Of a DNA stretch of 64,000 bases, positions 2,428 to 60,125 are shown one piece after another. The stretch lies in NCBI GenBank assembly GCA_963746725.1, contig CAVVCF010000007.1:169979-233978 (forward strand), written 5' to 3'. The notes under the pieces are model-generated. The model did no database searches. It was given only the letters and a program-made list of their open reading frames with translations, and was not told the origin of the DNA. The DNA is from an uncultured Alphaproteobacteria bacterium (GTDB lineage Bacteria > Pseudomonadota > Alphaproteobacteria > Sphingomonadales > Govanellaceae). The translations under genes and the position numbers were made by a program. Every line of letters starts with the position of its first letter. Position 1 is the stretch's first letter.

Positions 2428-3507
2428 CCCCTCAAACCGATTGCCGGTGATTTCGGCGGGCGCATCGGTATAGTTCCTGATAAAGGTGCCATTCGGCGCC
2501 TGATTGACGAATTCGTTATTGACGACGAGCAGGCGGTTTTCCTTGTGCACAAGATTTTCCGCCCCGTAGCTGACCAGGGTGTAGTTTTCCGCGCGCGGGC
2601 CCTGCTCCAGGTAGTTATCCCTGAGAATGCCGATCCCGCCATCGGACAGATCCACCAGATAACTCGACGCGCCCCTGTCGCCGTCAATGATTTTGTTGCC
2701 GATCAGGATAGTGACGCGGGCGCGGCTTTTGACGTTGTGGCCGCGAACCGCGCCTTCCACCAGACTGTCGGTCACGGTGAGCGAGTTGACCTGACCGACA
2801 TAGATGTTATGGCCCAGCGACTGTGTGCCTTCGACCACATTGTGAATGAAGCGGGAGTTGCGGATGACAACGTCGCTGGCCTGATTGGTGCCCGCAAGAA
2901 TGCCCATCTGATTGTCATGAAAGTCGCAATTGTCGATCACCAGCCCCGCGCCTTCAAGCCGAATTCCTGCGCCGTTTCGGTCAGGCACCCGCGCGCCCGA
3001 GAAGCTGATATTCTCGATATGATAGTTGTTGCCGCGCAGCACCCAGATCGCCTTACTTTGGGCTGAGCGTCCCGCTGCCAGCAGCTGTACCTTGCCTCCC
3101 ACGCCCCGGATGGTGAGGTTGTTGGCGGTCCAGACCGCCACGTCGCCGCGGTAGGTGCCGGCCGCAATCTCCACAATGTCGCCGTCCCGGGCGACTTTGG
3201 CGGCGGCACTTGGCGCCGCATAAAACGTGCCCGGACCCACTTTGAGAACCCGGGCGCCCATGGGGTTTTCCCGGCTCATTGGTTCGGGAGGTGCTGTCTT
3301 GGCCTTGGCCTTGGCTTCGATTTTCGCTTCGGGCCTGGCGGTGGTTTTGGCGCCCGTTGTTTCAAACTCGATCCCGGTCACGTCGTCGACCGCCACCGGC
3401 ACCCGTATGGTGCGCCCGTCTTTCAGGTGAATGAGCACATCGGCCTGGGTGCCTGCGGTTGGCAGTATGGTCAGGCAAACGGAAAGAAGAATGGCAAGGC
3501 GGATCAT
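2326..3507 (-). CDS. Secreted right-handed parallel beta-helix repeat protein (NosD / pectate-lyase fold)
   Basis: Within ORF 2326..3675 the plausible start is the ATG at 3507, which gives the signal peptide MIRLAILLSVCLTILPTAGTQA. Repeated beta-helix turns are visible (...NISFSGARV..., ...IDNCDFHDNQMGILAG..., ...IRNSRFIHN...). Confidence 0.75.
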   Translation of the reverse strand: MIRLAILLSVCLTILPTAGTQADVLIHLKDGRTIRVPVAVDDVTGIEFETTGAKTTARPEAKIEAKAKAKTAPPEPMSRENPMGARVLKVGPGTFYAAPSAAAKVARDGDIVEIAAGTYRGDVAVWTANNLTIRGVGGKVQLLAAGRSAQSKAIWVLRGNNYHIENISFSGARVPDRNGAGIRLEGAGLVIDNCDFHDNQMGILAGTNQASDVVIRNSRFIHNVVEGTQSLGHNIYVGQVNSLTVTDSLVEGAVRGHNVKSRARVTILIGNKIIDGDRGASSYLVDLSDGGIGILRDNYLEQGPRAENYTLVSYGAENLVHKENRLLVVNNEFVNQAPNGTFIRNYTDAPAEITGNRFEGSGTILSGPGVVTAPVDGSSPVAAHHLPHDQGGE

Positions 3508-3529
3508 CAGCCGCTCCGTGGTCCGGGGT

Positions 3530-4465
3530 TTAGCGCGTCGCAGTATAGTACGCCGCGGCCCCGGGATGAACCGGCAATGCCGTGTCAAGCGCGCGCAATT
3601 GGCGTTTGTCGAGGTGTTTAAGGGCCGGATGCGCCGCCCTGAGCGTATCGAGATCGGCGGAAATCGCCGCGACAATGGCCTTCACCAGAGCCGTCGGCAG
3701 GTCCTTGCGCGCCAACAGGAGGGAGGCTTGACCCACCGTGGTGACCCCCTGAGTCTGGCCACGGTAGAGCCCGGCCGGGATCGTCACCCTGGTGTAAACC
3801 AGGTTGGCCTTGGTGAGTTGGGTAATCATCGGCTCCCCGAGCCCCACGAGCCGCGTGTTGCACGAGCGGATGGCTTCCTGCACCATACCGGCGGGCTGGC
3901 CCACCATCAGCATCAGCCCCCGCACCGTTCCGGCGCAGAGCGGCGGCGAGATCAGGTCAGCCTGGGATTTCGAAGGCTTGCGCAGCTTGCGGTCCAGAAT
4001 TTTTGCGATGATAACGGCTGACCCCCGATGGCCGCTTTCAAGACTGCCGCTATAGAGTTTGCGAAACGGCAGGTCGGCGAGGGTGGCCGCCGGATCGTCG
4101 GCGCGCACGATCACCGTCAGGTAATCCTGATGGAGCCGCATGACCTGGACAATGTTCGGAGCCTTTCGGGCCCGCGCCACGTCATTCTGAACGATGGCAA
4201 GGTCTGCCGAGCCATCCATCAGGGCGTCCATGTTTGCACCCGATCCGGCGGTCCGCCAGGCGGCGCAGCGGGTGTTTGGAACGCGGCGGTTGATGATATG
4301 GCAGAGCGCGCGTCCCGCCGGATAGGAAACCCCGGTCAGCGGCCCGGTGGCGATCGTCAGGAATCGTTTGGCCGCCAGCGCCGGAACGCCTGGTATTCCG
4401 ACAACGAGTATAGTTGCGAGCAGGGCGATGCCGCTCAAAGTCCGGATTTTTGTTTGCACTTTCAC
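3530..4465 (-). CDS. TAXI-family TRAP transporter solute-binding protein (no TRAP permease adjacent)
   Basis: 311 aa with a signal peptide. Carries ...LTIATGPLTGVSYPAGRAL... and the C-terminal ...LPVHPGAAAYY... characteristic of TAXI/NMT1-like binding proteins. Confidence 0.75.
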   Translation of the reverse strand: MKVQTKIRTLSGIALLATILVVGIPGVPALAAKRFLTIATGPLTGVSYPAGRALCHIINRRVPNTRCAAWRTAGSGANMDALMDGSADLAIVQNDVARARKAPNIVQVMRLHQDYLTVIVRADDPAATLADLPFRKLYSGSLESGHRGSAVIIAKILDRKLRKPSKSQADLISPPLCAGTVRGLMLMVGQPAGMVQEAIRSCNTRLVGLGEPMITQLTKANLVYTRVTIPAGLYRGQTQGVTTVGQASLLLARKDLPTALVKAIVAAISADLDTLRAAHPALKHLDKRQLRALDTALPVHPGAAAYYTATR

Positions 4466-22888: not shown

Positions 22889-22967
22889 CTAGTGTGGTTT
22901 TGGGAACTGAAGTACGCTTTCCACTCCTGCAGCTTCTATGATGCGAACTTCAGTTCCACCACACTAG
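22889..22967. repeat. Long imperfect inverted repeat (about 21 bp arms, 33-nt spacer) abutting the stop codon of the PilZ-methyltransferase gene
   Basis: ctagtgtggt(tttg)ggaactgaagt pairs with acttcagttccaccacactag. It shares the core gaacttc(a/g)g with the neighbouring palindrome. Confidence 0.7.
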
Positions 22968-24400
22968 GCAGTCTTGGTCAGAGTGAGCATGCAAACCCGG
23001 CCAGTGGGATCGAGGTTGGTCTCGGCCATCGCATCCGGCAAGTCCTCGGCAAATGCCATCATTTCCGCTTCATCGCGATAAATCACGGTCCAGTCGGCCA
23101 GGAACTCCATTGGCCACAGGTTGCTGCCCGGCGTCTTGTACATATTGCTGATGATCAGCTTGCCGCCGGGCGCGACGCAGGAGAACAGGGACTCGACCCA
23201 GGCTTTACCGCGCTTGGCCTGCAGATAGTCGATCAGACCCACCGAATAGATCAGGTCCTGGGGCCCGAGCCTGGCCAACAGCTCGTTGGTCTTGAAGATC
23301 TGATTGAACGAGGCATGCAGGCAGGTAACGCTGGCCTTGCCATGGAGGCGGATCACGTCAGGGTGCGTGCGTTCATAGGCCTGGGAGAGCGCACCGTGAT
23401 CCTGGTCGATCAGCGTAAAGTGGGTATGCTGGGGGATGTCCCGGATTTTCAGATAGTCAATCACTTCGCGCGCCGGACCGCAGCCAAGGGAGGTAATCCG
23501 GACGGTATCTTTTTTCGGTTCGAGAATGGTTTTGGCAATGGTCTGGCGCATCATCACCATCCGCGTCGCGATGCACTCGGCCACGTCCAGGCCAAGCCGG
23601 TGCACCAGCTTTTCATAGAGGCTGTCGCCTTCGCGCTGCCAGTCATAGACCATGTTCATGATCTGATAGTCGCCGGGATAACCGAGCGGCTTCTCGTAGC
23701 TGCGCCGCCAGATGGCGCCGGCATTGATCTCCGGCGTCAGCACCAGCTCGGTAAAGCGTTTGGCGTCTTTCAAGGCTTGCGGGTCGTTCATAATCGCCTC
23801 GGCAAGCGCATTGCCGCGGTGCCAGAGGGATCTCCACTGCAGAAGTATTTTCTCTTCGCAGGATGCCAGCAACTCGGCCGCAGCCTTTTCTTCGATATGG
23901 CTCTGGCCAATCTCTTCGAGGCCGGCGCGGTAGGACCTCAAGAGATGAAGTGTGTCGGCGACGAGCGTCCTGTATTCCTCACTGACGCCACCACCGGGCG
24001 TGATCGTGGTGAAGTCGGAGATATCGTTCCTGAGGATTAGCTCTTTGTACTTAGAGACGACCTTGGGGACATCAAAACTGCGGTCCAGGAGTTGCAGGCC
24101 GAATTTCGTGCCGAACTGTGTGGGTTCGCTACGCACCACCTGACCTTCGCCTTCGAACAGCGTGCTCTCATCAAGGGTGAGATGGACAGAGACACGTTGA
24201 TCGGACTGAAGCATGTCCTCGGCATTGGGATTGGCATAGGCCGAAAGGCCGCTCAGGGAAACGTCGGCCAGCCGGTGCGGGGTCTGGTTGAGCCGCAAAT
24301 CCGGCACAGAATTACGAAACAGATCACGCGCCTTGTACCGTTCCGCCCTGAAGAACACACGGCGACCCTGGCCGCCACTCAACTCCTCGTAGGTCCTCAT
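22964..24400 (-). CDS. PilZ domain - class I SAM-dependent methyltransferase fusion protein
   Basis: ATG at 24400 is preceded by gggaggatcgc (strong SD). N-terminus has RRVFFR (RRxxxR), then DVSLSG (D/NxSxxG) 28 residues later, then ...GQVVRSEPTQFGTKFGLQL... (PilZ barrel). C-terminal half has VRITSLGCGPAREV (SAM motif I), ...FTLIDQD..., ...LIYSVGLIDYL..., ...APGGKLIISN.... Confidence 0.75.
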   Translation of the reverse strand: MRTYEELSGGQGRRVFFRAERYKARDLFRNSVPDLRLNQTPHRLADVSLSGLSAYANPNAEDMLQSDQRVSVHLTLDESTLFEGEGQVVRSEPTQFGTKFGLQLLDRSFDVPKVVSKYKELILRNDISDFTTITPGGGVSEEYRTLVADTLHLLRSYRAGLEEIGQSHIEEKAAAELLASCEEKILLQWRSLWHRGNALAEAIMNDPQALKDAKRFTELVLTPEINAGAIWRRSYEKPLGYPGDYQIMNMVYDWQREGDSLYEKLVHRLGLDVAECIATRMVMMRQTIAKTILEPKKDTVRITSLGCGPAREVIDYLKIRDIPQHTHFTLIDQDHGALSQAYERTHPDVIRLHGKASVTCLHASFNQIFKTNELLARLGPQDLIYSVGLIDYLQAKRGKAWVESLFSCVAPGGKLIISNMYKTPGSNLWPMEFLADWTVIYRDEAEMMAFAEDLPDAMAETNLDPTGRVCMLTLTKTA

Positions 24401-24800
24401 GCGATCCTCCCGATACTGCCCCACTACCAAACGGAGCAAATCCTTTCTACAGGCGTTACCAGGGCTGCGATTTGTCCGCCCTTTGCCGCCGACTTAACGC
24501 CATTGTTTAACTATTACCTTCGAACCGGTTGAATTAAAAGTTAAAAATTTATTAAAAATTTTCTCTACTTTCCAGACGCAGCGGGGAAGATAGTGTGACG
24601 AATCGATGGATCAGACCGGTGGATTGGCTGTGGAAGCCAGAAAAGAGATCAACAAATAAAAGAATAAAGAAATTCTGATATCTACTAAAACGGTTACGCT
24701 TGCAACCCTAACGTGGTTTCCGGGCGTGCGCATATGGGGTGCGCAATCACACGGGCTCTAGCGAAATTATTGAAAAAAGTTAAATGGTTATCGGCGGGTT

Positions 24801-24830
24801 TAAGAAAATCGCCCGGCACTGAGGCCGGGC
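24801..24830 (-). terminator. Rho-independent terminator of the globin-coupled MCP gene
   Basis: On the minus strand: gcccggc-ctcagt-gccgggc followed by gATTTTCTTaaa. It lies about 33 nt after the stop codon. Confidence 0.6.
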
Positions 24831-24862
24831 GCAGGATCGAACCACGTTCAGGTTAGGAAGGA

Positions 24863-26212
24863 TTATGCAGCCCGCACCTTATCCAGGAACGCGGAGACCT
24901 GTTGTTCAAGCGCTTCCGACTGTTCCGCCAGGGCCGATGCGGCTGTCCGGACCTGTTCCGCGACAGAGCCGGTTTCCTGTGTTGAATTCTGAACCTCGCA
25001 GATGCTTTCCGAGACTATACGGGTGCCGGTGGACGCCTCCTGGGTGTTGCGCGCGATTTCGTTCGTTGCTGCAGACTGCTCCTCAACCGCCGATGCGATC
25101 AATGCCGACAGGGTGTCGACTTCGGAGATCTCGGTGCTGATATCCCCAAGCGCAGCGGCGGACGCGCTTGTCACCTTCTGCATTTCGACCACCAGCTCGC
25201 GGATCTCTTCAGTTGCCGACGCAGTCTGGTTGGCAAGGGTCTTGACCTCTGAGGCCACCACCGCGAAGCCCCGTCCGGCCTCGCCGGCCCGCGCCGCCTC
25301 GATGGTGGCATTGAGAGCAAGGAGGTTGGTCTGGTCGGCCACGTCCTTGATCAGCCCGACCACGGCGCCGATTTTCTCCGAGGCCTCGACCAGTCCCTTT
25401 ACGGTCGTGTTGGTATCGGTAGCCCGGTCAGCAACGCGGCGGGTGACCTGGGCGGCATTATGCACCTGGCCCGAGATTTCCTTGATCGACTGCGTCATTT
25501 CCTCGACCGCCGAGGCAATGGTCGAGACATTGCTCGTTGCCTGCTCGGCCGCGGCGGCGACGTTGGCCGATTTTTCGCTGGTCACATTGGCGGTCTGCGA
25601 CATGGCGCCCGATGCGTCCTGCAATTCCTTCACCGATTTGGCAAGGCTGCGAGCAAAACCGCCCACCGTCTCCTCGAAGGTGGCGACCATGGTTTCCAGC
25701 GCCTCGGCTTTTTCCTTCTTGCCTTCGTCGAGGTAGATGGAGATCGCAAAATCCATATCCAGGAACGCAGCCTTGATCAGCGCCGCCAGCGTTTCCTTGC
25801 GGGTGTCTGCCATTTCCGCGCCGGGGTGCGTTTCATGCAATTCTTCGGCGCAGGCGGTGACAACGTCCGCCAGAATGTATGCGTACCCGCCGAGATACCA
25901 GCGCGGCTCCAGCCCGAGCTGGTGATGGGCGTGGCCGATGCGTCGGACCGAATCCACGTACTGGCCGTCAAATTCCGCCGCGGCAATCAGACCCCAGTGG
26001 CGACGCTGGGCGGATTTTGCGTGGTCTTTGACGTCCTGACTGGAAAACAGACGGTCGACATCCCCGAATTTCGCGATGTGGGTGTAGAACCCGTCGAGAG
26101 CACTGGAAAGATACTTGTCGATCTGGGCGCTGGCGGTTTTGAGATGGTTCCTGGCGGCGGCGTCAATTCCCAGGAATGAAAGCCGCGTTTCGAGATCTTC
26201 ATTCGATGACAT
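24863..26212 (-). CDS. Soluble globin-coupled sensor / methyl-accepting chemotaxis protein (HemAT-like)
   Basis: N-terminal protoglobin-type sensor domain (...[25 protein letters not shown]...). C-terminal MCP signalling hairpin (...[36 protein letters not shown]...). No TM helices. Confidence 0.85.
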
Positions 26213-26452
26213 AGAAATGTGCTCCGGTAATTGCGCGTTTTATAAAATTCGATTACTGATCTATGTTATTAGAATGAAGTCGTAAAACTATCGTTAATGG
26301 AACTGGCGAAGCGATTTTTCCTATGTCTGTTTGACTCAGAAATTTGACCAATTTGCATGGCCGTTCCCGCTTCGCAGCCCGGGCTTTCTTTGATCATTCT
26401 GTCGGGCTAAGGTCAGTCGTCACATTGGCCCTGGGCACGAAGCAATGACGGA

Positions 26453-27781
26453 ATGAGCGACCTTTGCGACACGGTAATTGTCGGCGGCGGGCCGGCAGGG
26501 GTGGTGCTCGCCCGCCAGCTCAAAGGCCTCGGGCTTCGCCCGACAGTTGTTACCCGGCCGCGCCCGTTTGCGGCGACGGAAGGCTTCTCTCCACGTACGA
26601 TGGATCTGGTGTCGCGGTTTTGCGGCGACTCCGGGCAGGCCGGTCTGATCTCCCGGACGGTTTATTGGAACGGCGAAGTCGGCGCCGCCAACCGCGAGGC
26701 TCTGATCGACCGGTGCGCCTTCGACCAGGCGCTTGTCGCCGACGCTGAAGGGCTTGGTGTGAATGTCATCGATGGCCGGGTTCAAACGACCGCCCGCAGC
26801 GGTGCCGAATGGCATATAGGGTATCGCACGCGCGGCGGCAGAGAGGGCGTGTTGAAGGCGCGCTTCCTTGTCGAAGCCAGAGGGCGGTCGGCGCCGCTGG
26901 GCCGGGGCGGACAGGTGCGCGGCCCGGCGCTGGTCTGTCTCTCCCGGCGCTGGGGGTTTTCGGACCGGGGCCCGGAACAGGCCGCCGTTGCCGCTTTCGA
27001 GAACGGGTGGGCGTGGTTTGTCAGGCCGCGGCACGGAGACGCCGTGTTGCAGATTTTCGTCGATCCCGGCGACGGATTACCGCCACGCCGTCAGTTAGGG
27101 GCATTCTACCAGGACGCGATTGGGCAGATAGCTGAGGCGCAAGGTTGGCTTGGGGGCGCAAACCCATCAGGCCCCATGCGCGCGCGCCATGCCGGCATGG
27201 TCCTGAGCGGCACGCTTTCGGCACCCGATTATCTGCGTCTGGGTGACGCCGCCATGGCCATCGATCCGCTCTCCGGCCACGGCGTCTACAAGGCAATATC
27301 AAGCGCGCTTGCCGCGGTGCCGGTCGTCAATACGCTGCTCGCCCGCCCCGGCGATGCGGCGCTTGCCGGGGGCTTCTACCGGGACCGGATTGCCGATGAT
27401 TTCTGGACCTCGGCGCGGATCGCCCGCGATTTCTATGCCGAAGAGGGGCGCTGGTCCGACCGGCCGTTCTGGTCGGCGCGTCGCGCGTGGCCGGATTTCG
27501 CTCCCGCCCATCCCGACGTGAAGGCGGGCATGATGACGGTCGAGCGGCGTGCGGTTGCCCGTGACAATTATGTGGAAGAGGCGGATGTTCTGGTAACGCC
27601 CGACCAGCCCCGCGGGGTCTGGCACGTGGCCGGCCTGCCGGCCGTCAGTCTGTGGAGCTTGCTGCGCCAGGGCACACCGAGCATTGACCATCTTGCGCAA
27701 CGGTTCGGGGTCGCCCCGGCGGCCGCCAAGGCGGCACTGGAGTGGTTTCGAGAACGCGGCCTGATGAACGCCCATGACTGA
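26453..27781 (+). CDS. FAD-dependent halogenase-like oxidoreductase with a C-terminal PqqD/RRE-like winged-helix extension
   Basis: VIVGGGPAGVVLA (GxGxxG), ...FENGWAWFVRP... (resembles the WxWxIP motif of flavin halogenases), ...GDAAMAIDPLSGHGV.... The last 80 aa or so (27530-27778), VERRAVARDNYVEEADVLVTP..GVWHVAGLPAVSLWSLLRQGTPSIDHLAQRFGVAPAAAKAALEWFRERGLM, fit a beta3-alpha3 PqqD-like pattern. Confidence 0.7.
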   Translation: MSDLCDTVIVGGGPAGVVLARQLKGLGLRPTVVTRPRPFAATEGFSPRTMDLVSRFCGDSGQAGLISRTVYWNGEVGAANREALIDRCAFDQALVADAEGLGVNVIDGRVQTTARSGAEWHIGYRTRGGREGVLKARFLVEARGRSAPLGRGGQVRGPALVCLSRRWGFSDRGPEQAAVAAFENGWAWFVRPRHGDAVLQIFVDPGDGLPPRRQLGAFYQDAIGQIAEAQGWLGGANPSGPMRARHAGMVLSGTLSAPDYLRLGDAAMAIDPLSGHGVYKAISSALAAVPVVNTLLARPGDAALAGGFYRDRIADDFWTSARIARDFYAEEGRWSDRPFWSARRAWPDFAPAHPDVKAGMMTVERRAVARDNYVEEADVLVTPDQPRGVWHVAGLPAVSLWSLLRQGTPSIDHLAQRFGVAPAAAKAALEWFRERGLMNAHD

Positions 27782-28467
27782 TTCGCCCATTCTGATTGGT
27801 GTCCTTGATAGCGGCGTCGAAGACGCATTCGCGCCTGTGGCTGCGCAAACGGCGTTTCGTCGGCCAACGCGATGGGGCCGTTGTCGAGACGGTGGCGCAT
27901 CCGGACCGACTGGCGCACGGGTCCGTTATCGCGCGGACGATTGCCGATCTGATACCCGAAGCCCGGTTTCTGGCTGCGCAGATTTTTCATGACCGCATGG
28001 TCACGACGCCTGCCGCCGCCGCTGCCGGGCTCGATTGGCTGTGCAAGCAAGGCGCGCGCATTGTCACCATGAGCTTTGGATTGCGGGCCGACCGGGACGT
28101 GTTGCGAACGGCCTGCGCCCGCGCCCACGAGGCCGGTGTCATTCTGCTGGCGTCCTCACCGGCGCGCGGTGGTCCCGTCTTTCCTGCGGCGTACCCGGAT
28201 GTCATTGCTGTGTCCGGCGATGCGCGCCTCGCCCCCGGTGAAATCTCGGCGCTGGATCCGGAGCGCCCGGTATTCGGGGCCCACAGTTGGCCCTCCGGCG
28301 TTGACGGCACCGGAAAGCCCATCGCCGGCGGGGCAAGTTTTGCGGTGGCGACGGCGGCGGCCATTGTTGCCCGCGCTCTTGTTGAGAAGCTGGCGGCCAA
28401 TAGCGCAGATGTCGTCGCTTACCTCAGGGCCAATGCCCGGTATCATGGGGCCGAGCGAAGAAAATAG
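27774..28467 (+). pseudogene. Minimal (about 230 aa) cytoplasmic subtilase (S8)-like protein, apparent frameshift after codon 28 or so
   Basis: ATG at 27774 overlaps the upstream stop by 8 nt and encodes MTDSPILIGVLDSGVEDAF... (the Asp motif). His (...LAHGSVIART...) and Ser (...GGASFAVATAAA...) motifs are in the frame of ORF 27796..28467. The junction is at T-run 27855-27857. No signal peptide. Confidence 0.6.
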
Positions 28468-28561
28468 TCGAGCGAGCAGAAATCCTCCCCGGGCGTCGTT
28501 GACAGGTGGAGCCGCACCCGGCACTCTCGGCCCATTAACGTCCCGAGGTTGGGAATGCCCG

Positions 28562-30265
28562 ATGACTTCAGAACCTGTCAGTACACGCGACCCGAACAAA
28601 AAAAAGCGGCGCTATAAACGCCGGGGCCGCCAGGTGGAGGCGGAAGCGCTGGCCGACGTCAGGGCGCTCCTGGGCGACACGCCCCGGCGGCGAGATCTAT
28701 TGATCGAACATCTTCATAAAATTCAGGACCGCTATGGTCACCTCTCGGCACGCCATCTCGCTGCACTTGCCGAGGAAATGCACCTCGCCATGGCGGAGGT
28801 TTACGAGGCGGCCACCTTTTACGCCCATTTCGACGTGGTCAGGGAAGGCGACAAGCCGCCACCACCATTGACGGTCCGGGTTTGCGACAGCCTGGCGTGC
28901 GAAATGGCCGGGGCCGGAGGGCTCCTCAAGGATCTCGGGGAGCGGTTCGGCGGAAAAGTGCGCGTGGTGCGCGCGCCCTGTATGGGGCGTTGCGCCAGTG
29001 CGCCGGTCGCAGAGGTTGGTCATTACCACATGGACGAGGCAACGGCGGCGTCAATTGCCGAGGCGGTCAGCGCCGGCGTGTCCGAGGCGGTGGTGCCCGA
29101 CTATCAGGATTTTCGGACCTGCCATGACGGGGGCGGTTATCAGAGCTTGCGCGCCTGCACGGACGGTGCGCGGCCGGTCGAGGATGTCATCGAAACCCTG
29201 AAGGAGGCCGGCCTGCGCGGGTGCGGCGGGGCCGGGTTTCCGACCGCGCTGAAATGGAGTCTGGTGCGCCAGGAGCCGGGCCCGCGCCTGATGGTGGTCA
29301 ATGCCGACGAAGGCGAGCCCGGCACGTTCAAGGATCGCCACTTTCTTGAATCCCGTCCCCACCAGGTGCTGGAAGGCGCGCTGATCGGCGCCTGGGCGGT
29401 GGAGGCTGAAGCGGTCTATATTTATCTGCGCGACGAATATCCGGCGGCGCACAGGATTCTTGCGGCGGAAATCCCCAAGGTGGAAGAGGCCGGACTTGCG
29501 CCGCCCGGTGGCATTCATCTGCGCCGTGGGGCCGGGGCCTATATCTGCGGCGAAGAATCCGCGCTGATTGAAAGCATCGAGGGCAAGCGCGGTCTGCCCC
29601 GACACCGCCCGCCCCATGTGGCGAAGGTCGGGCTGTTCGGCCGCCCGACGCTGATGAACAATGTGGAAACGCTCTATTGGGTCCCGGAAATCCTCGACAA
29701 GGGCGCCGCCTGGTTCGCCGCGGAGGGCGCGAACGGCGGCAAGGGTTTGCGTGCGTACTCGGTCTCCGGCCGGGTGCGCGACCCGGGCGTCAAAATCGCC
29801 CCGGCGGGCGTCACCGTTCGCCAGTTGATCGACGACTATTGCGGTGGTATGGCAGACGGGCACGCATTCAAGGCCTATCTGCCGGGCGGGGCGTCCGGCG
29901 GTATCCTGCCGGCCTCGCTCGGCGATGTGCCGCTCGATTTCGGCAAGCTTGAAGAGCATGGCTGTTTCATCGGTTCGGCCGCCGTGATTGTGCTCTCCGA
30001 CAAGGACCCGATGCCGGCCGCCGCGCTGAACCTGATGCGGTTTTTCGAAGATGAAAGCTGCGGCCAGTGCACGCCGTGCCGGGTCGGCACCGAAAAGGCG
30101 ATCAAGCTGATGGAGGCGGGGACCTGGGACGAGCCGCTGATGAACGAGCTGTCGGCGGCGATGCGGGACGCCTCCATTTGCGGGCTCGGCCAGGCCGCGC
30201 CCAATCCGCTGACCTCGGTGCTCAAATTTTTTCGTGACGAACTCCCCGTGAAAGGGGGGCGATGA
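28562..30265 (+). CDS. NAD-linked formate dehydrogenase beta subunit (fused NuoE-like + NuoF-like diaphorase)
   Basis: ATG at 28562 inside the longer ORF 28076..30265. 2Fe-2S cysteines (VCDSLACEMAG...CMGRCASAP), ...GCGGAGFPTALKW... (FMN), ...ADEGEPGTFKDR..., ...ESCGQCTPCRVG... (4Fe-4S). Confidence 0.88.
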   Translation: MTSEPVSTRDPNKKKRRYKRRGRQVEAEALADVRALLGDTPRRRDLLIEHLHKIQDRYGHLSARHLAALAEEMHLAMAEVYEAATFYAHFDVVREGDKPPPPLTVRVCDSLACEMAGAGGLLKDLGERFGGKVRVVRAPCMGRCASAPVAEVGHYHMDEATAASIAEAVSAGVSEAVVPDYQDFRTCHDGGGYQSLRACTDGARPVEDVIETLKEAGLRGCGGAGFPTALKWSLVRQEPGPRLMVVNADEGEPGTFKDRHFLESRPHQVLEGALIGAWAVEAEAVYIYLRDEYPAAHRILAAEIPKVEEAGLAPPGGIHLRRGAGAYICGEESALIESIEGKRGLPRHRPPHVAKVGLFGRPTLMNNVETLYWVPEILDKGAAWFAAEGANGGKGLRAYSVSGRVRDPGVKIAPAGVTVRQLIDDYCGGMADGHAFKAYLPGGASGGILPASLGDVPLDFGKLEEHGCFIGSAAVIVLSDKDPMPAAALNLMRFFEDESCGQCTPCRVGTEKAIKLMEAGTWDEPLMNELSAAMRDASICGLGQAAPNPLTSVLKFFRDELPVKGGR

Positions 30266-33880: not shown

Positions 33881-34505
33881 GGCGCCGGACGCGGTAGGCG
33901 TGATCCTCGCCGGCGGGCTCGCCCGGCGCATGGGTGGCGGCGACAAATGTCTGCTCGATGCCGCCGGCAAGCCCTTGCTGGCTCACGTGATCGAACGCTT
34001 TGAGCCGCAGGTGCGGGCGCTCGCGATCAATGCCAATGGCGACCCGGACCGCTTTGCCCGGTTTGGGCTTCCCGTCATCGCCGATGTGGTGCCGGGCTTT
34101 GCCGGGCCGCTTGCCGGGGTGCTGACCGGCATGGACTGGGCCCGAAAAGACTTTCCCGATTGCAAATGGCTGGCAACGGCGGCGGGCGACACGCCCTTCA
34201 TGCCGGGCGATCTGGTGGTTCGTCTTATGGATGCGGCGGCGGAGGCCAAAGCCCCGCTCGCGGTGGCGGAATCGGATGGCCGACGCCACCCGGTGTTCGG
34301 CCTGTGGTCGCTCGACCTGATTGAAGACCTTGAAAAGGCCGTTGTCGAAGAAGGGGTGCGCAAGATCGTCGCCTGGACCGACCGTCTCGGGGTTGCCCGG
34401 GTGGCGTTCCCGGTCGCGCCGTTCGATCCCTTTTTCAACATCAACACGCCGGGCGACCTTGATGTGGCGGCGCGCCTCGCGGCGGATACGGAGGCCGCCT
34501 CATGA
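33873..34505 (+). CDS. mobA: Molybdenum cofactor guanylyltransferase
   Basis: ATG at 33873 overlaps the fdhD stop. ...GVILAGGLARRMGGGDKCLL... is the MobA P-loop-like motif. Confidence 0.85.
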   Translation: MTEAPDAVGVILAGGLARRMGGGDKCLLDAAGKPLLAHVIERFEPQVRALAINANGDPDRFARFGLPVIADVVPGFAGPLAGVLTGMDWARKDFPDCKWLATAAGDTPFMPGDLVVRLMDAAAEAKAPLAVAESDGRRHPVFGLWSLDLIEDLEKAVVEEGVRKIVAWTDRLGVARVAFPVAPFDPFFNINTPGDLDVAARLAADTEAAS

Positions 34506-35214
34506 ATTTTGGCGACGCCATCGCCCAGGCTTTCCGCCTGATCGTCAGTTTCGACCCCGATCTTCTCGAGATCATCGGCCGCTCGTTTCAGGTCAGCCTG
34601 AGCGCGGTTGCCATATCGGCGCTGATCGGTGCGCCTCTGGGCGCTGCGATCGGGCTCGCCCGGTTCCGCGGGCGTGGCGCGCTCGTCGTGATGCTCAATT
34701 CCCTGATGGGCCTGCCGCCGGTGGTGATCGGTCTGATCGTCTACCTCATGCTGACCCACAATGGTCCCTTCGGCGTGTTCAACCTGCTGTTTAGCCCGAC
34801 CGCGATGATCGTCGCCCAGACCATCCTGATTACCCCTCTGATTGCCGCGCTTGCCCGCCAGGTGGTCGAAGACTTGTGGCAGGGCTATGCCGAACAGTTC
34901 CAATCCTGGGGATTGCGCCCGTTCGGGCCGTGCCCACGCTTCTTTGGGACGCCCGGGTGGCGCTGACGACGGTGCTGCTGGCCGGCTTCGGCCGCGCCAT
35001 TTCCGAGGTCGGCGCGGTAATGATCGTCGGCGGCAACATCGATCACCTGACCCGGGTCATGACCACGGCGATCGCGCTGGAGACTTCCAAGGGTGACCTC
35101 GATCTCGCCATGGCGCTCGGCATTATCCTGTTGGCAATGTCGCTTCTCGTGAACGCGCTATCACACGCGGTGCGCCGGGCTGCCGGGCCGGCGGAAGGTC
35201 TGGCGCGTGTCTGA
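34502..35214 (+). pseudogene. tupB: Tungstate/molybdate-type ABC transporter permease (TupB-like), apparent frameshift
   Basis: The N-terminal 135 aa or so lie in the frame of ORF 34502..34966. The conserved C-terminal half (...LGIAPVRAVPTLLWDARVALTTVLLAGFGRAISEVGAVMIVGGNI...) lies in the frame of ORF 34876..35214. The junction is near 34905-34910. Confidence 0.7.
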
Positions 35215-35923
35215 ATCCGAACCGCTCCTCTCGCTCGACGCGGTCACGCTGAAGGTCGATGGCAAACGGCTGATCGATAGTGTCAGTGTCACCTTTCCCG
35301 AAGGCGCGCGGACCGTGGTGCTGGGGCCGAACGGGGCCGGCAAAAGCCTCCTTATGCGGCTTTGTCATGGCCTGATCGCGCCCACGTCGGGGCGGGTCAA
35401 TTGGCGGCTGGGGCAGGGTGGTACGCCTGCGCGCCAGTCTATGGTGTTTGATCGGCCGGTGTTGCTCCGGCGTTCGGTGGCTGGCAATATCCGCTATCCG
35501 CTGGCGGCCGCCGGCGTCCCTGCGTCGGCCCGTCAACAACGCGTCGACGATGCCCTTTCCCTGGCCGGGCTTCAGGATCGGGCGCGCCAGCCGGCATCGA
35601 CACTTTCTGCGGGGCAGAAGCAGCGCCTGGCGCTGGCGCGGGCCTGGGCGCTGCGCCCCGATGTGCTGTTTCTCGATGAGCCCGCCGCGCACCTGGACCT
35701 TGCCGCAACGCGCGATATCGAGAATATGATTTCGGTCATTCACGACCGGCAGGCCACGATCATTCTGACCACCCACGACCTTGCGCAGGCCCGCCGGGTT
35801 GCCGATCATGTGGTATTCGTGCACAACGGCCGGGTGGTCGAAGCGGGGCCGGCGAAGGCGTTTTTTGACAGTCCGCGATCAGCGGAAGCGCGGCATTTTT
35901 TAATGGGAGAGATTTTCGAATGA
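35207..35923 (+). CDS. tupC: ABC transporter ATP-binding protein (TupC-like)
   Basis: Walker A GPNGAGKS, signature LSAGQKQRLALA, Walker B VLFLDEP. GTG start overlaps the tupB stop. Confidence 0.75.
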   Translation: MSESEPLLSLDAVTLKVDGKRLIDSVSVTFPEGARTVVLGPNGAGKSLLMRLCHGLIAPTSGRVNWRLGQGGTPARQSMVFDRPVLLRRSVAGNIRYPLAAAGVPASARQQRVDDALSLAGLQDRARQPASTLSAGQKQRLALARAWALRPDVLFLDEPAAHLDLAATRDIENMISVIHDRQATIILTTHDLAQARRVADHVVFVHNGRVVEAGPAKAFFDSPRSAEARHFLMGEIFE

Positions 35924-36756
35924 AGTCCTGTTTCAAGTTATTTGCAGTCGTGGCGGCGCTGGCTGTCGCACTCCTCGCCGGCACGCCTCAGGCGATGGCG
36001 CGGCCACTGTTGATCGTATCGACCACGTCTGTACAGAACTCAGGCCTGATGCCCTACCTGCTGCCCAAATTTGAAAAAGAGGCAGGCTTCAAGACGGCCC
36101 TTGCCGCCTACGGGACGGGCCAGGCGCTCCGCGCATGGCGCGCAACGGCGACGCCGATATTCTGATCGTCCATGACAAGCCCTCAGAGCTCAAATTCATG
36201 GCCGATGGCTGGGGCCTTGAGCGCCGCGAATTCATGTATAACGACTTTCTCATCGTCGGGCCCAAGGATGATCCCGCGGGCGTTGCCGGTATGGCGGACG
36301 CCGTCACAGCGCTCGAACAGATCAGGGAAAAGCACGCGCTGTTCGTGTCGCGCGGCGACAACAGCGGGACCCAAAAGGCGGAACTCAGGCTGTGGGCGGC
36401 GGCCGGGCTTAGCCCTAAGTCCTTCGACGCCAAATGGTATCGGGACGCCGGCGCCGGCATGGGCGCGACCTTGAACATCGCGGCCGGGATGGATGCCTAT
36501 ACGCTGGTCGACCGGGGGACCTGGCTCGCTTTCCGCAACCGGAGCACGCTCAAGCCGGAAGTGCAGGGCGACCCGCGGCTTTATAACCAGTACAGCGTGA
36601 TTCTCGATCAACCCCAAGCGCTACCCGGATCTCCAGCATGCCAAGGCGCGCAAGCTTGCCGACTGGCTGGTGTCCCCGAAAGGCCAGGCGTTGATTGCGG
36701 CCTACCGGGTCGACGGCCAGCAGCTTTTTACCCCCAACGCGCACATGACGAAATGA
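35920..36756 (+). pseudogene. tupA: Tungstate ABC transporter substrate-binding protein (TupA-like), two compensating frame changes
   Basis: Signal peptide and the first 70 aa or so are in the frame of ORF 35920..36165. The middle part (...NGDADILIVHDKPSELKFMADGWG...FVSRGDNSGTQ...YNQYSVIL) is in the frame of ORF 36135... The last 48 aa (INPKRYPDLQHAKARKLADWLVSPKGQALIAAYRVDGQQLFTPNAHMTK*) return to the first frame. Junctions lie near 36131-36136 and 36606-36611. Confidence 0.7.
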
Positions 36757-38015
36757 ACGAGAAGGGGCTAAGCGACGATTGTTTCGCCATTGGCGACGCG
36801 CTGATACCCCTGGACGAGGCCCTTGGCCGCCTTCGCGCCCGGTTGAGCGCAGTGGTGGGTGTCGAGCAAATCTCCCTTGGGGAAGCAGCGGGCCGGGTGC
36901 TCGCCGTGGAGGTCCGCGCCTGCCGTGACGTACCGGCCTTTGATAATGCGGCGGTGGACGGATTTGCCTTCGCTCACCGTGATATGGCGAAGGAAGGCGA
37001 GACGCGTTTGCCATTGTATGGGGTGGCGCGCGCCGGTGCGGCCATGTCCGAGCCGCTGGCGGCGGGCACGGCGGCGGAGGTCTTTACCGGCGCGCCGCTA
37101 CCGGCGGGCGCGGATACCGTGGTGATGATCGAGGACACCCGGCGCGACGGCCACGCGGTGATTTTTCCGGCGGGCGTGAAGCCGGGCACCAATGTGCGCC
37201 GGGCCGGGGAGGACATGACCGCGGGCGCGGTTGCGCTCGAGCCCGGGAAACGCTTGCGGCCCCAGGATCTGGGCGTGATTGCCGCGACTGGCTTGGCCAA
37301 GGTTGCAGTGTGCGAACGGCTGAGGGTTGCGATCTTTTCGACCGGCAATGAACTCGTCGAGCCCGGCGAAGTGCTGGAAATCGGCGGCGTCTACGACGCA
37401 AACCGCCCGATGCTGCGGGCGATCCTCCAAGGCTGGGGGTTTTCGGTGACCGATCTTGGCATTTTGCCAGACGAGCCTGCCCGCATCCGTGCAGCGTTGG
37501 AACAAGCCGCGGCAAGCCACCACGTCATCCTGTCTTCGGGTGGCGCATCGAAAAGCGCGGAAGACCATGTGGTCCGCGTGGTCGGCGATCTGGGCCGGCT
37601 CGATTTCTGGCGGATTGCGGTCAAACCGGGCCGGCCGATGGCGTTCGGGCGCTTGGGCCGTGCCGCCTATGTCGGCCTGCCAGGCAATCCGGTGGCCGCT
37701 GCCGTCTGTCTGTTGCGGATCGCGCGCCCGGCCCTGTTTACGCTTGCCGGGGCCGGTTGGATGGACCCTGTGCCGTATCCGCTGCCCGCCGGGTTCGCCA
37801 TGACCAAGAAGCCCGGACGGCGGGAATTCATCAGGGGCTCTGCCGCGCGCGGGAAGGATGGGCGCGTAATAGCCCAACGCTTCGCGCGTCAGGGTTCGGG
37901 CATTCTGACCTCGCTCACGGCCGGCAACGGTCTCATTGAATTACCTGAGGACCTGACCCGGGTGGAGGTCGGCGACCCCGTCGACTTTATTCCCTATTCG
38001 GACCTGCTGGCCTGA
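36753..38015 (+). CDS. moeA: Molybdopterin molybdotransferase
   Basis: ATG at 36753 forms an ATGA overlap with the tupA stop. MNEKGLSDDCFAIGDALIPLDEAL...VFTGAPLPAGADTVVMIED...SGGASKSAEDH...KPGRPMAFG are MoeA hallmarks. ORF-track entry 36135..38015 is a read-through artefact that joins it to tupA. Confidence 0.88.
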   Translation: MNEKGLSDDCFAIGDALIPLDEALGRLRARLSAVVGVEQISLGEAAGRVLAVEVRACRDVPAFDNAAVDGFAFAHRDMAKEGETRLPLYGVARAGAAMSEPLAAGTAAEVFTGAPLPAGADTVVMIEDTRRDGHAVIFPAGVKPGTNVRRAGEDMTAGAVALEPGKRLRPQDLGVIAATGLAKVAVCERLRVAIFSTGNELVEPGEVLEIGGVYDANRPMLRAILQGWGFSVTDLGILPDEPARIRAALEQAAASHHVILSSGGASKSAEDHVVRVVGDLGRLDFWRIAVKPGRPMAFGRLGRAAYVGLPGNPVAAAVCLLRIARPALFTLAGAGWMDPVPYPLPAGFAMTKKPGRREFIRGSAARGKDGRVIAQRFARQGSGILTSLTAGNGLIELPEDLTRVEVGDPVDFIPYSDLLA

Positions 38016-45877: not shown

Positions 45878-46144
45878 TTATCCTTCTCGTTCTTTTCCTT
45901 CGTCAAACCCGATCACTGCGTTTTCGCCAAGGTGTGACATGGCAAGCCCGGTGAGCGCGCTGACCTGTTCCGTAATCGGACGGCTGTCCCGCGGCGCAGC
46001 GGCGCGCGCCATCCAGCCGGGAGGTTCCTTGCGCTTGTACAGCATCAGAACAATGGCCAGACGGGGAACCACGGTAAATCCCCGAGGGGGCGAGACCTCC
46101 GGCCCTTTCGGGGTCAGGTCCGGTGAGGGGGACAGTTGGTTCAC
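45878..46144 (-). CDS. Possible 88-aa protein coupled to the upstream secreted-protein gene
   Basis: GTG at 46144 overlaps the TGA of ORF 46141..46494 (GTGA). No family recognised. Confidence 0.3.
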   Translation of the reverse strand: MNQLSPSPDLTPKGPEVSPPRGFTVVPRLAIVLMLYKRKEPPGWMARAAAPRDSRPITEQVSALTGLAMSHLGENAVIGFDEGKEREG

Positions 46145-46494
46145 CTGATTGTCGCGCTGACGTCCTGGCGGTCATTTGCTTCGGCGCGACCGACGTCGTC
46201 AGTCAGATAAGGGGTGCGCGCGGAAGGGTCGACTTCAATTTCCAAAACATGAGTCGCGTCTTCGTTGACGGTAATACTGCGCTCTTTAAGGGCCGCTTTC
46301 ACCACCGCCACGGCGGCCATGGTTTCATCGTTGTCGTCAAGCGGGTCGATAGCGACAGCCTTTGGCATGGCGAAGGGATCGAGCACGCGCGCAATCAGGG
46401 TTTCCCCCGCCGAGGCCGCGCCCGCGAAGGCGAGGACGAAAACGGCGAAACAAAAAGCGGTCGGTGCCGCAATTCGATATTTTTTCAGGATCAT
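46141..46494 (-). CDS. Hypothetical secreted protein (117 aa)
   Basis: Signal peptide MILKKYRIAAPTAFCFAVFVLAFAGAASA and an acidic mature part. Divergent from the M2 peptidase gene. Confidence 0.5.
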   Translation of the reverse strand: MILKKYRIAAPTAFCFAVFVLAFAGAASAGETLIARVLDPFAMPKAVAIDPLDDNDETMAAVAVVKAALKERSITVNEDATHVLEIEVDPSARTPYLTDDVGRAEANDRQDVSATIR

Positions 46495-46716: not shown

Positions 46717-48540
46717 ATGTATGGCATTCGCGGCTGTTGCCTCACCCTGAGTTTGGCTGTCTTGCTCCATGGCTTGCCCGAACAGGCCCGGGCCGACCCT
46801 TCGGCTGCCCCACCGGCGAATGCAGCCGCCGCCCGGACCTTTGTCGCCGAGACCAGCGCCAGACTGAAGGCGCTGTGGATTGCCGCATCCAAGGCGTCTT
46901 GGGCCAAGGCGACGAACATTACCGACGCCACGGTGGCCGCCGAGGCGGCGGCCAACGCGAAGGTCCTCGCCGCCGAAGCAGAAGCCATTCGCGGTGCCGC
47001 CCGGTTTAACGGTGTGAAGACCGACACCGATACCCGGCGCCAGCTCGAACTCATCAAGATCATGTCATCGTCGCCCGCCCCTGCGGACCCGCAAAAGGTC
47101 GCCGAGCTTGCGGATATCATGAGCCGGATGGAGGCGATCTATGGCGAGGGCAAGGTTTGCGAGAACGGCAAATGCCGGACGCTTGAGGACCTGAGCGACG
47201 TCATGGCAACGAGCCGCGACCCGAACGAGCTCCGCAAAGCCTGGGTCGAGTGGCGCACCATATCGCCCAGGATCAAGCCGCTTTACGAGCGCTTCGTGGC
47301 CCTCACCAGCGAAGGAGCGCAGGAGATCGGGTTTGCTGACCTCAGCGCGCTATGGCGGTCAGGTTACGACATGACGCCGGAAGAGTTTTCGGCGGAAGTC
47401 GACCGGCTGTGGCGGCAAGTGGCCCCGTTCTATCAATCGCTCCATTGCTATGTGCGGGCCCGGCTCAATGGGTACTATGGCGACGCCGTGGCGCCGGCCC
47501 AGGGGCGCATTCCGGCGCATCTTCTGGGCAACATGTGGTCGCAGAGCTGGGGCAATATCTATGACATTGTGGAGCCCTATCCGGACGCGGTGAGCGTAGA
47601 CCCCACGGCGGCGCTGAAAGCCCAGCACTATGATCCGATTCGCATGGTCAGGCTCGGCGAGAATTTCTTTTCGTCCCTCGGCTTCGCCCCGCTGCCCGCG
47701 ACGTTCTGGCAGCGCTCGATGTTCACCAAGCCGAATGATCGGGAGGTGGTGTGTCACGCCAGCGCCTGGGACCTCAACTTCGGTGACGATCTCAGGGTCA
47801 AGATGTGCATCAAGACGACCTATGAAGATCTGGTGACCATTCATCACGAGCTTGGTCACAATTATTACCAGCGGGCCTACGATGCTCTTCCGGTGCTTTA
47901 CCAGTCGGGGGCGAACGATGGCTTTCACGAGGCGGTGGGCGACACCATCGCGCTATCCATCACGCCTGCCTACCTGAAGTCCATTGGCCTTGCCGACAGC
48001 GCGAGCGAGGGCGCGCACGCGGTGATCAACACCGAGATGCAGTTGGCGCTCGAAAAGATCGCGTTCCTGCCCTTCGGCAAGCTGGTAGACCAGTGGCGAT
48101 GGGGTGTGTTTTCGGGTGCCATTCCACCGGACCATTACAACAGCGCTTGGTGGGATCTGCGCCGCAAATATCAGGGGATCGAGCCTCCGGTAGCCCGGTC
48201 CGACGCCGACTTCGACCCCGGAGCCAAGTATCATATCCCGGCCAATACGCCCTACGCCCGCTATTTCCTATCGTTCATCCTGCAGTTTCAGTTCCACAAG
48301 GCGCTGTGCGATGCGGCGGGCTGGAAAGGGCCGCTTCATGAATGTTCGATCTATGGATCCAGGGCCGCCGGCGAGAAACTCAACGCCATGCTCGAAATGG
48401 GCCAATCGAGGCCGTGGCGCGACGCGCTATACGCCATGACCGGCAGGCGGGAGATCGACGCCGCCGCGCTCATGGAATATTTCGCGCCACTCAGGCGTTG
48501 GCTCGAAGAGCAGAACAAGGGGCGCCAGTGCGGCTGGTGA
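46717..48540 (+). CDS. M2-family zinc metallopeptidase (peptidyl-dipeptidase A, angiotensin-converting-enzyme homologue), secreted
   Basis: Signal peptide. ...TIHHELGHNYYQ... (HEXXH) with a downstream ...FHEAVGD... third zinc ligand. 607 aa, typical of a single-domain ACE-like enzyme. Confidence 0.88.
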   Translation: MYGIRGCCLTLSLAVLLHGLPEQARADPSAAPPANAAAARTFVAETSARLKALWIAASKASWAKATNITDATVAAEAAANAKVLAAEAEAIRGAARFNGVKTDTDTRRQLELIKIMSSSPAPADPQKVAELADIMSRMEAIYGEGKVCENGKCRTLEDLSDVMATSRDPNELRKAWVEWRTISPRIKPLYERFVALTSEGAQEIGFADLSALWRSGYDMTPEEFSAEVDRLWRQVAPFYQSLHCYVRARLNGYYGDAVAPAQGRIPAHLLGNMWSQSWGNIYDIVEPYPDAVSVDPTAALKAQHYDPIRMVRLGENFFSSLGFAPLPATFWQRSMFTKPNDREVVCHASAWDLNFGDDLRVKMCIKTTYEDLVTIHHELGHNYYQRAYDALPVLYQSGANDGFHEAVGDTIALSITPAYLKSIGLADSASEGAHAVINTEMQLALEKIAFLPFGKLVDQWRWGVFSGAIPPDHYNSAWWDLRRKYQGIEPPVARSDADFDPGAKYHIPANTPYARYFLSFILQFQFHKALCDAAGWKGPLHECSIYGSRAAGEKLNAMLEMGQSRPWRDALYAMTGRREIDAAALMEYFAPLRRWLEEQNKGRQCGW

Positions 48541-59661: not shown

Positions 59662-60125
59662 ACTGCCTGTTCCTTCGGGGCTATCATGTGAATCATACAA
59701 TTATAGGAAGTATTTCTTATATTGCAAACCCGTTAAAGTATATATCGTTTGCGTCGCAACGGCACTTGTCCTCGGGGCTTTTTTATCGTCTTCCTAACAC
59801 TCTCTTTACTTTGTGCGGCTACTCTGGTGTCCAGCAGCGGTTCCGGGTCAAGGCCGCAGTCGAAGCGGGGAATGGGCGGTCCTGAAGGTCGAAGGCCTCA
59901 AGGTCAAAGGTAAAGAGTTCGTTGAGAACTGCGGCCCCGCATTAACCTTTTGTTAAAAAATAAGGGCGCCAAATAGAACAGCCGGAAGAAGACCGGCCAA
60001 GGACAAGAATACGCAGACCTCTTGACGATAACGGCAAACCGTCGGCAACGGCGGGACGCAAAGCCTCCGGTCCCCGATAACAGAAAGTGGGGATAGCGGG
60101 GCTACCGAATTGAAGAAGGTGTGAC

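Follow-up and report, generated by a model that had tools for sequence, protein, structure and literature searches.

A qhpG-qhpE pair for quinohemoprotein amine dehydrogenase maturation, identified by sequence comparison, with no qhpA, D, C, or B found in 64 kb of an alphaproteobacterial contig

What would a flavoprotein modify when its gene overlaps that of a small cytoplasmic subtilase and no precursor peptide is encoded beside the two? This question is raised by positions 26453-28467 of a 64,000-nucleotide stretch (hereafter the window) of contig CAVVCF010000007.1, from an uncultured alphaproteobacterium. An earlier note, made from the sequence alone, had proposed a halogenase-family enzyme with a fused PqqD-type recognition element (RRE) for peptides that are made on the ribosome and modified after translation (RiPPs), working with a partner protease as a new and unusual peptide-tailoring pair. 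Judged from their sequences, the flavoprotein and the protease are instead orthologs of QhpG and QhpE, two characterized maturation proteins of quinohemoprotein amine dehydrogenase (QHNDH), a system reported in more than 1300 bacterial species. The note was therefore right about the kind of pair, a protein- or peptide-modifying flavoenzyme with a C-terminal winged-helix domain together with a cytoplasmic leader peptidase, but not about its novelty. A crystal structure (PDB code: 7CTQ) and biochemistry are already published for this system, and finding one more such pair matters little in itself.

The first gene is an intact open reading frame (ORF) at 26453-27781 of the forward strand, present as first described, whose 442-residue product would be a FAD-dependent peptidyl-tryptophan dihydroxylase. 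This product reaches 447 bits (E = 6e-134, profile positions 2-423 of 423) against the NCBIfam equivalog NF049967 (flavin-dependent monooxygenase QhpG), for which the cutoff is 240 bits. It also aligns end to end with the peptidyl tryptophan dihydroxylase structure 7CTQ (E = 6e-75), residues 8-437 of the query pairing with 9-431 of the chain. The two proteins, from the window and from Pseudomonas putida/Paracoccus denitrificans (Oozeki et al. 2021, PMC7876137), share the FAD domain plus winged-helix architecture over their full length at about 40% identity, and in both cases qhpE is adjacent. The flavoprotein motifs read by eye are in place. The GxGxxG FAD-binding loop (G11xG13xxG16; 26483-26500, forward strand), read from the sequence, aligns with the GAGPAG loop of 7CTQ; in the same alignment GWAWFV occupies residues 185-190 (27005-27022, forward strand), and GDAAMAIDPLSGHG is found at residues 264-277.

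Mutation of E42, R47, R70, W183, or R314 abolishes activity or QhpC binding in P. putida, and four of these five are conserved in the window protein, being retained as E43, R48, R68, and W188 in the 7CTQ alignment, whereas R314 is T319 here. R307 (R312 here) is also kept, along with D260, P267, and the residues of the pocket for Trp42 of QhpC, W74, L268, and F322 (W72, L273, and F327 here). Moreover, the counterparts of W186 and W188 in the P. putida enzyme, Trp181 and Trp183, are part of the lining of its re-face substrate channel, and the W183F substitution there kills activity (PMC7876137). Both tryptophans are invariant in the seven sequences of the clade described below and nearly so across 72 homologues.

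The proposed halogenase identity can be weighed against the same protein. Flavin-dependent halogenases carry a catalytic Lys some 60-70 residues past the GxGxxG loop and a complete WxWxIP motif. The nearest structures outside QhpG are indeed halogenases, CmlS (PDB code: 3I3L, E = 7.5e-15) and also CndH (PDB code: 3E1T); together with PltA (PDB code: 5DBJ), they match the middle of the window protein distantly and in second rank. However, no Lys occurs between residues 25 and 134, GWAWFV is an incomplete WxWxIP in which I-P is missing, and the Pfam Trp_halogenase profile gives only a partial match over residues 259-345, at 19.6 bits and below its cutoff of 21. Both the equivalog and 7CTQ identify a monooxygenase, a tryptophan dihydroxylase, and the chemistry of the orthologue is hydroxylation. 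In the description of QhpG itself, where the FAD catalytic domain comprises residues 1-344 and the winged-helix domain residues 349-429, the nearest structural relative of the catalytic domain is likewise CmlS (PMC7876137).

The C-terminal domain (residues 354-442; 27512-27778, forward strand) was the other half of that proposal. An AlphaFold2 model built with 72 homologues in the alignment (pLDDT of 88.4) bears out the strand-strand-strand-helix-helix-helix order that had been attributed to PqqD-type RREs. Nonetheless, the sole significant Foldseek match of this model in the PDB is the winged helix of 7CTQ_A (E = 5e-5, TMq of 0.70), the other matches being non-significant helix-turn-helix fragments from ArsR- and MarR-type regulators, with no RRE-containing structure among the best 50. 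A Pfam search of the isolated C-terminal domains of three QhpGs gave no PqqD (PF05402) match at E ≤ 10, and weak HemN_C, HTH_28, LexA, and DUF2582 matches only. The tail is thus a winged helix, the domain already published for QhpG, and the PqqD-type RRE finds no support in either search. Also, the published docking model has QhpD, and not QhpG, holding the leader peptide, while the QhpC core sits in a pocket to which the winged-helix domain of QhpG contributes one wall (PMC7876137). A new RiPP pair consisting of a halogenase-family enzyme with a fused RRE and its protease is, on these data, highly improbable.

A further comparison concerns LodB and GoxB, the flavoprotein maturases of the cysteine tryptophylquinone enzymes LodA and GoxA, which are homologous flavoproteins and also build this cofactor. 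The window QhpG matches their profiles over residues 81-343 with 89 bits (NF038171) and 73 bits (NF038174), far below the equivalog cutoff of 400 bits, and these matches leave its C-terminal domain uncovered. The substrates differ as well, being 7-hydroxy-Trp in a large protein for LodB/GoxB and an unmodified Trp for QhpG (PMC7876137). No LodA- or GoxA-like partner turned up among the scanned window proteins, in a scan that was not aimed at either.

The second gene, qhpE, starts at an ATG (27774) 8 nt ahead of the qhpG stop (TGA, 27779-27781), and this overlap was correctly described before. However, the single protease ORF of about 230 residues that had been claimed is not there. The frame of this ATG holds the catalytic Asp motif ILIGVLDSG, aligning with the N termini of QhpE homologues, and ends at a stop at 27992 after 72 codons, whereas the His motif LAHGS, SSPARG, and the Ser motif GGASFA lie in another frame (ORF 27796-28467, 223 residues). 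The gene is thus composed of a 5' part in frame 0 (27774-27855), a TTT run with one surplus T (27855-27857), and a 3' part in frame +1 (27856-28467) that ends in RYHGAERRK, all on the forward strand; the frameshift had been silently read across. In this respect, a reader working without tools can correctly recognize a maturation module of RiPP-like type when given only the sequence, and yet miss the frameshift within it.

The lesion was located at GCG-TTT-CGT (27852-27860) by comparison with the intact 233-residue homologue of a syntenic metagenomic contig (L001), and the DNA alignment with that contig shows a 1-nt surplus at 27855-27857. When one T is deleted from this run, a protein of 230 residues (231 codons with the stop) is obtained that aligns end to end with QhpE homologues. 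The repaired reading AFVGQRDG is in register with AFFGAADG of L001, and the repaired segment AAQTAFVGQRDGAVVE is in exact register with DAQRAFFGAADGSVEE. Against the equivalog NF049966 (subtilisin-like serine protease QhpE, cutoff of 165 bits), the 223-residue ORF reaches 217 bits and the repaired protein 229.8 bits, over profile positions 2-219 of 219. The three triad motifs (Asp, His, and Ser) can be aligned with those of canonical QhpEs, and so can SPA[RQ]G and the C-terminal RYxGPERR, these last two being present in 11 of 11 sequences (the window and ten others, most from loci that also bear qhpADCB). The replacement of the usual oxyanion motif AAGN by SSPARG, singled out earlier, is therefore real but not peculiar to this gene. 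In size (about 230 residues, minimal within the S8 family), triad motifs, SPA[RQ]G where the Asn motif of the oxyanion hole would stand, and RYxGPERR, the protein agrees with QhpE, the single-turnover leader peptidase of QhpC (Nakai et al. 2012, as cited in PMC7876137); one difference is the frame broken by one extra T.

For the same 270,929-bp contig, the public protein collection has a QhpE truncated to 222 residues, and the deposited assembly therefore contains the extra T. At the same time, qhpE is intact in all five relatives where it is readable in full, it has no further stop or other defect here, and at least three other window genes, in about 55, are split across frames likewise, namely those of a conserved 203-residue protein (45878-46494, reverse strand), an ABC permease (34502-35214, forward strand), and a PBP_like_2 binding protein (35920-36165 and 36135 onward, forward strand). 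Because four such splits, qhpE included, occur in about 55 genes, the homologues are intact, and the gene shows no other damage, an assembly indel is more likely than a true pseudogene. These several one-base indels should also temper any pseudogene call drawn from this assembly.

A programmed +1 ribosomal frameshift, in which tRNA-Phe would slip at the site GCG-UUU-C and move from UUU to UUC, would restore the protein without any error in the assembly. The shift needed is indeed +1, and UUU-C permits re-pairing of tRNA-Phe on UUC. Nevertheless, this event is very unlikely, its chance being close to nil, because the five intact homologues are read in a single frame at this position; besides, no stop or recognized rare codon follows the site, no stimulatory element is evident, and similar one-base splits affect other genes of the window.

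The function expected of the pair follows from the established QHNDH pathway, in which the small gamma-subunit precursor QhpC of P. putida/Paracoccus denitrificans bears a 28-residue leader (PMC7876137). The radical-SAM enzyme QhpD grips QhpC through this leader and installs three Cys-Asp/Glu thioether crosslinks (PMC7876137, PMC8172795). The crosslinked core then docks in a QhpG pocket between the FAD and winged-helix domains, and QhpG places two hydroxyls onto Trp43, the precursor of cysteine tryptophylquinone, in a single turnover within a QhpC-QhpD-QhpG complex; in vitro, QhpG requires the crosslinked QhpC bound to QhpD (PMC7876137). In the same report, QhpE is a minimal cytoplasmic subtilase that removes the 28-residue leader in a suicidal, one-time reaction (PMC7876137), and after leader removal the peptide is exported by QhpF. 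With a leader that is later cleaved off and thioether crosslinks made by a radical-SAM enzyme, the published system fits the RiPP-like pathway that had been suspected (PMC7876137, PMC8172795). The logic is shared with the sactipeptide-type radical-SAM/SPASM pathways, comprising a leader-bearing precursor, SPASM thioethers, a tailoring oxidation, a dedicated leader protease, and ABC export (PMC8172795, PMC7876137). However, the QHNDH product is an enzyme subunit with a protein-derived cofactor and not a secreted natural product, and the locus in the window holds the tailoring enzyme and the protease only.

Where, then, would QhpC be encoded? No substrate gene for the pair was found in the 64-kb window, in line with the earlier suggestion that the substrate may be elsewhere. 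A small-ORF scan gave no precursor ORF in 26213-26452, as had been stated, and likewise nothing credible in 24441-24862. Weak tblastn matches of QhpC in these two regions (E of 0.5-4.5) were dismissed, not being collinear. The sequence around the pair is free of qhpADCB for 26 kb upstream and 35 kb downstream.

The closest relatives show the same arrangement. The nearest QhpG sequences come from six metagenomic contigs (L001, L002, L027, L028, L029, and L031), with 49-61% identity where measured, and in all six loci qhpG precedes qhpE (G→E order), stop and start codons overlap, and qhpADCB are absent from the flanks. In four of them (L002, L027, L029, and L031), mobA follows qhpE directly, overlapping it stop to start in L002, L027, and L031. 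Formate dehydrogenase genes come after qhpE in L001, as in the window, and the contig L028 ends inside qhpE, so its downstream gene is not visible. In L029 (Logan SRR28370465, 2452-3738), QhpE and a MobA-like guanylyltransferase form one ORF of 428 residues, …RFKGAERK-TGIAGVILAGGEARRMGGGDK…. A recurrent fusion of this kind was considered and rejected, no protein of about 430 residues being among the best 120 QhpE matches; the fusion was seen on one contig and is treated as a one-off. In a neighbor-joining tree (without support values), the window and these relatives form a monophyletic group, the G→E clade, which falls within the QhpG family on the side where alphaproteobacterial sequences occur.

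The synteny of the pair is wide, the two genes being adjacent in many other genomes. E-G followed by A-D-C-B occurs in Pseudomonas and in a metagenome-assembled genome (MAG) of Burkholderiales, and A-D-C-B…E-G in Marinobacterium, so that at the compared loci of other genomes the order is E→G, in contrast to the G→E order with an 8-nt overlap seen here. The closest canonical QhpEs, 52-54% identical to that of the window, belong to complete A-D-C-B-F-E…G operons of Rhodospirillales MAGs, where qhpE comes directly after qhpF, whereas in the clade it is followed by mobA or formate dehydrogenase genes. Split sets are known as well. Two Rhodospirillaceae-type loci (L003 and L005) have G-A-D-C-B with no qhpE within 10 kb, and Pseudomonas fluorescens LY3 (NZ_QLIN01000009.1) keeps E-G, collinear with P. 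jessenii until just before qhpA, with qhpADCB missing from about 10 kb of downstream flank, which makes it another detached E-G pair. According to the structural study, the arrangement, order, and strands of qhp genes vary between genomes (PMC7876137). To this variability, the present locus makes a small addition, a lineage in which qhpG and qhpE are re-ordered, separated from the structural genes, and closely spaced with mobA.

As a separate observation, a gene call on a metagenomic contig (L035; JGI 3300041024, 2556-4283) joins QhpD (Radical_SAM, Fer4_12) and QhpC (QH-AmDH_gamma) in 575 residues. In a near-identical contig (L036), the two are separate, with 479 and 109 residues, and the join may be an enzyme-substrate fusion or a sequencing artefact.

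Selection on the two genes was estimated from dN/dS ratios. Between L002 and L027, these are 0.18 for qhpG and 0.24 for qhpE, with 0.03-0.07 for the flanking genes, and between the window and L001 they are 0.19 and 0.20, with about 0.09 for the flanking genes, although in this last comparison dS is near saturation. With ratios of about 0.2, both genes are subject to purifying selection within the clade.

Based on these data, the reading preferred here, to which a probability of about 0.65 is assigned, is that of a functional qhpG-qhpE pair that has been relocated and acts on a QhpC whose gene lies in another part of the genome, the frameshift in qhpE being an artefact. In this alphaproteobacterium-like lineage, the pair would have moved away from qhpADCBF and been re-ordered, with qhpG now first and translationally coupled to qhpE, and would still act on QhpC. 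This reading builds on direct results, namely the membership of both proteins in their families, the domain architecture, the conservation of catalytic residues and of synteny, and the purifying selection, and adds two steps to them: qhpADCBF would most likely lie elsewhere in this genome, and the one-base frameshift would most likely be an assembly indel.

Several observations weigh against it. No qhpA, D, C, or B is present in the whole 64-kb window (the best tblastn match has an E of 0.005) or in up to 10 kb of flank of any clade locus. As sequenced, qhpE cannot yield an active protease, its Asp being out of frame with His and Ser. In the window QhpG, R314, essential in P. putida, is replaced by T319, although this Arg is likewise not conserved in the canonical QhpG of L003, and Glu34, which contacts the FAD ribose in P. 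putida, is Arg35 throughout the clade. Moreover, no G→E clade member was found among 185,579 species-representative genomes, in a single-protein scan or in an alignment scan; the 23 loci given by the latter do not exceed 46% identity and do not include the clade, and a metagenome scan added two short contigs only. Also, the tight packing of the pair with mobA, fused in one case, is a link that QHNDH biology does not explain. Finally, the non-synonymous rate of qhpG, qhpE, and mobA is about four to five times that of the flanking genes, and their dN/dS exceeds that of the neighbors by the same factor. The protein identities between the window and L027 are 70-85% for the flanks, 49% for QhpG, 59% for QhpE, and 61% for MobA.

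Part of this evidence would fit a decaying remnant, with a real frameshift, QHNDH lost or being lost in this organism, and a pair that no longer functions here while working in relatives. qhpE is broken at codon 28, with the catalytic Asp cut off from His and Ser, the deposited assembly has the same lesion and a 222-residue truncated gene call, the window is devoid of qhpADCB, and P. fluorescens LY3 offers a comparable case of E-G retained with ADCB missing from the downstream flank. However, qhpG is fully intact, qhpE is damaged at one site only and contains no other stops, and its repaired product still reaches 230 bits. Between the window and L001, the dN/dS of qhpE (0.20) is no higher than that of qhpG (0.19), with dS near saturation. 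Similar one-base splits in at least three unrelated window genes point to sequence quality over targeted decay. Decay is judged unlikely.

Another alternative is a repurposed stand-alone module, in which the QhpG- and QhpE-like proteins would be transcribed together with MobA and would process, without QhpD, some substrate that is not QhpC. The window and the six related loci all keep the G→E pair without ADCB, qhpE and mobA overlap stop to start in three of these loci and are fused in a fourth, the clade is monophyletic with substitutions of its own (Arg35 for Glu34, loss of R314), and the pair evolves faster than the genes around it. Nonetheless, both proteins score far over the equivalog cutoffs made for true QhpG and QhpE, the pocket residues that grip the Trp42-Trp43 loop of QhpC are conserved, and the clade is nested inside the canonical QhpGs and not beside them. 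The dependence of QhpG in vitro on crosslinked QhpC bound to QhpD (PMC7876137) also speaks against a QhpD-free module, and no conserved candidate substrate ORF was found near the pair. In addition, synteny among related genomes is expected without a functional link, and the fusion was seen on one contig only. Such a module is considered distinctly improbable, with only a small chance of being correct. If the pair did work without QhpC and QhpD, it would point to a new substrate for tryptophan-dihydroxylating flavoenzymes, and in that improbable case a new system for a protein-derived quinone or hydroxy-tryptophan modification would have descended from the QHNDH maturation machinery.

Upstream of the pair lie genes for a FadL/TodX-type porin, a histidine kinase, a PilZ-methyltransferase-like protein (reverse strand), and a globin-coupled chemoreceptor (reverse strand). 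The divergent intergenic region between the chemoreceptor gene and qhpG (26213-26452) holds no credible ORF and presumably contains the promoter, and no sigma-70 consensus match was found in it. A promoter and terminator scan of 24400-28700 gave nothing exceeding shuffle expectation. Downstream, a spacer of 94 nt (28468-28561) follows qhpE, and then come the genes of an NAD-dependent formate dehydrogenase (a fused NuoE/NuoF-like subunit and FdsA), fdhD, and mobA; no terminator was found between qhpE and the fds genes. An Rfam search gave no regulatory RNA near the pair, its sole matches being a tRNA and a c-di-GMP riboswitch far from it.

Some other features of the window were recorded. The PilZ protein (22964-24439, reverse strand, 491 residues) has an N-terminal PilZ domain, a below-cutoff class-I methyltransferase match at its C terminus, and no NCBIfam match; it is kept beside qhpG-qhpE in the window, L001, L002, and L027, with 73-83% identity to the window copy. 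An ORF of 626 residues at 36135-38015 (forward strand) combines the C-terminal three quarters of a PBP_like_2 domain with a complete MoeA (N, MoCF_biosynth, and C domains), and is either a real fusion or an indel artefact that deleted a stop codon. A full-length bacterial Peptidase_M2 of the angiotensin-converting-enzyme family (46717-48540, forward strand, 774 bits) is also kept in the syntenic contigs L002 and L027. Finally, the distant riboswitch is of the c-di-GMP-I-GGC type (RF03167; 60024-60110, forward strand, 67.5 bits with a gathering threshold of 59) and lies directly 5' of a very large open frame (60114-64000, forward strand), which has at least 1295 codons and continues past the end of the window. 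Read by eye, this frame opens with the subtilase-like motifs GVIDDGV, DGHGTKVAG, and SGTSFSAP followed by tandem PAGTFTDxDGD repeats, and its predicted product resembles a secreted protease or adhesin under the control of c-di-GMP.

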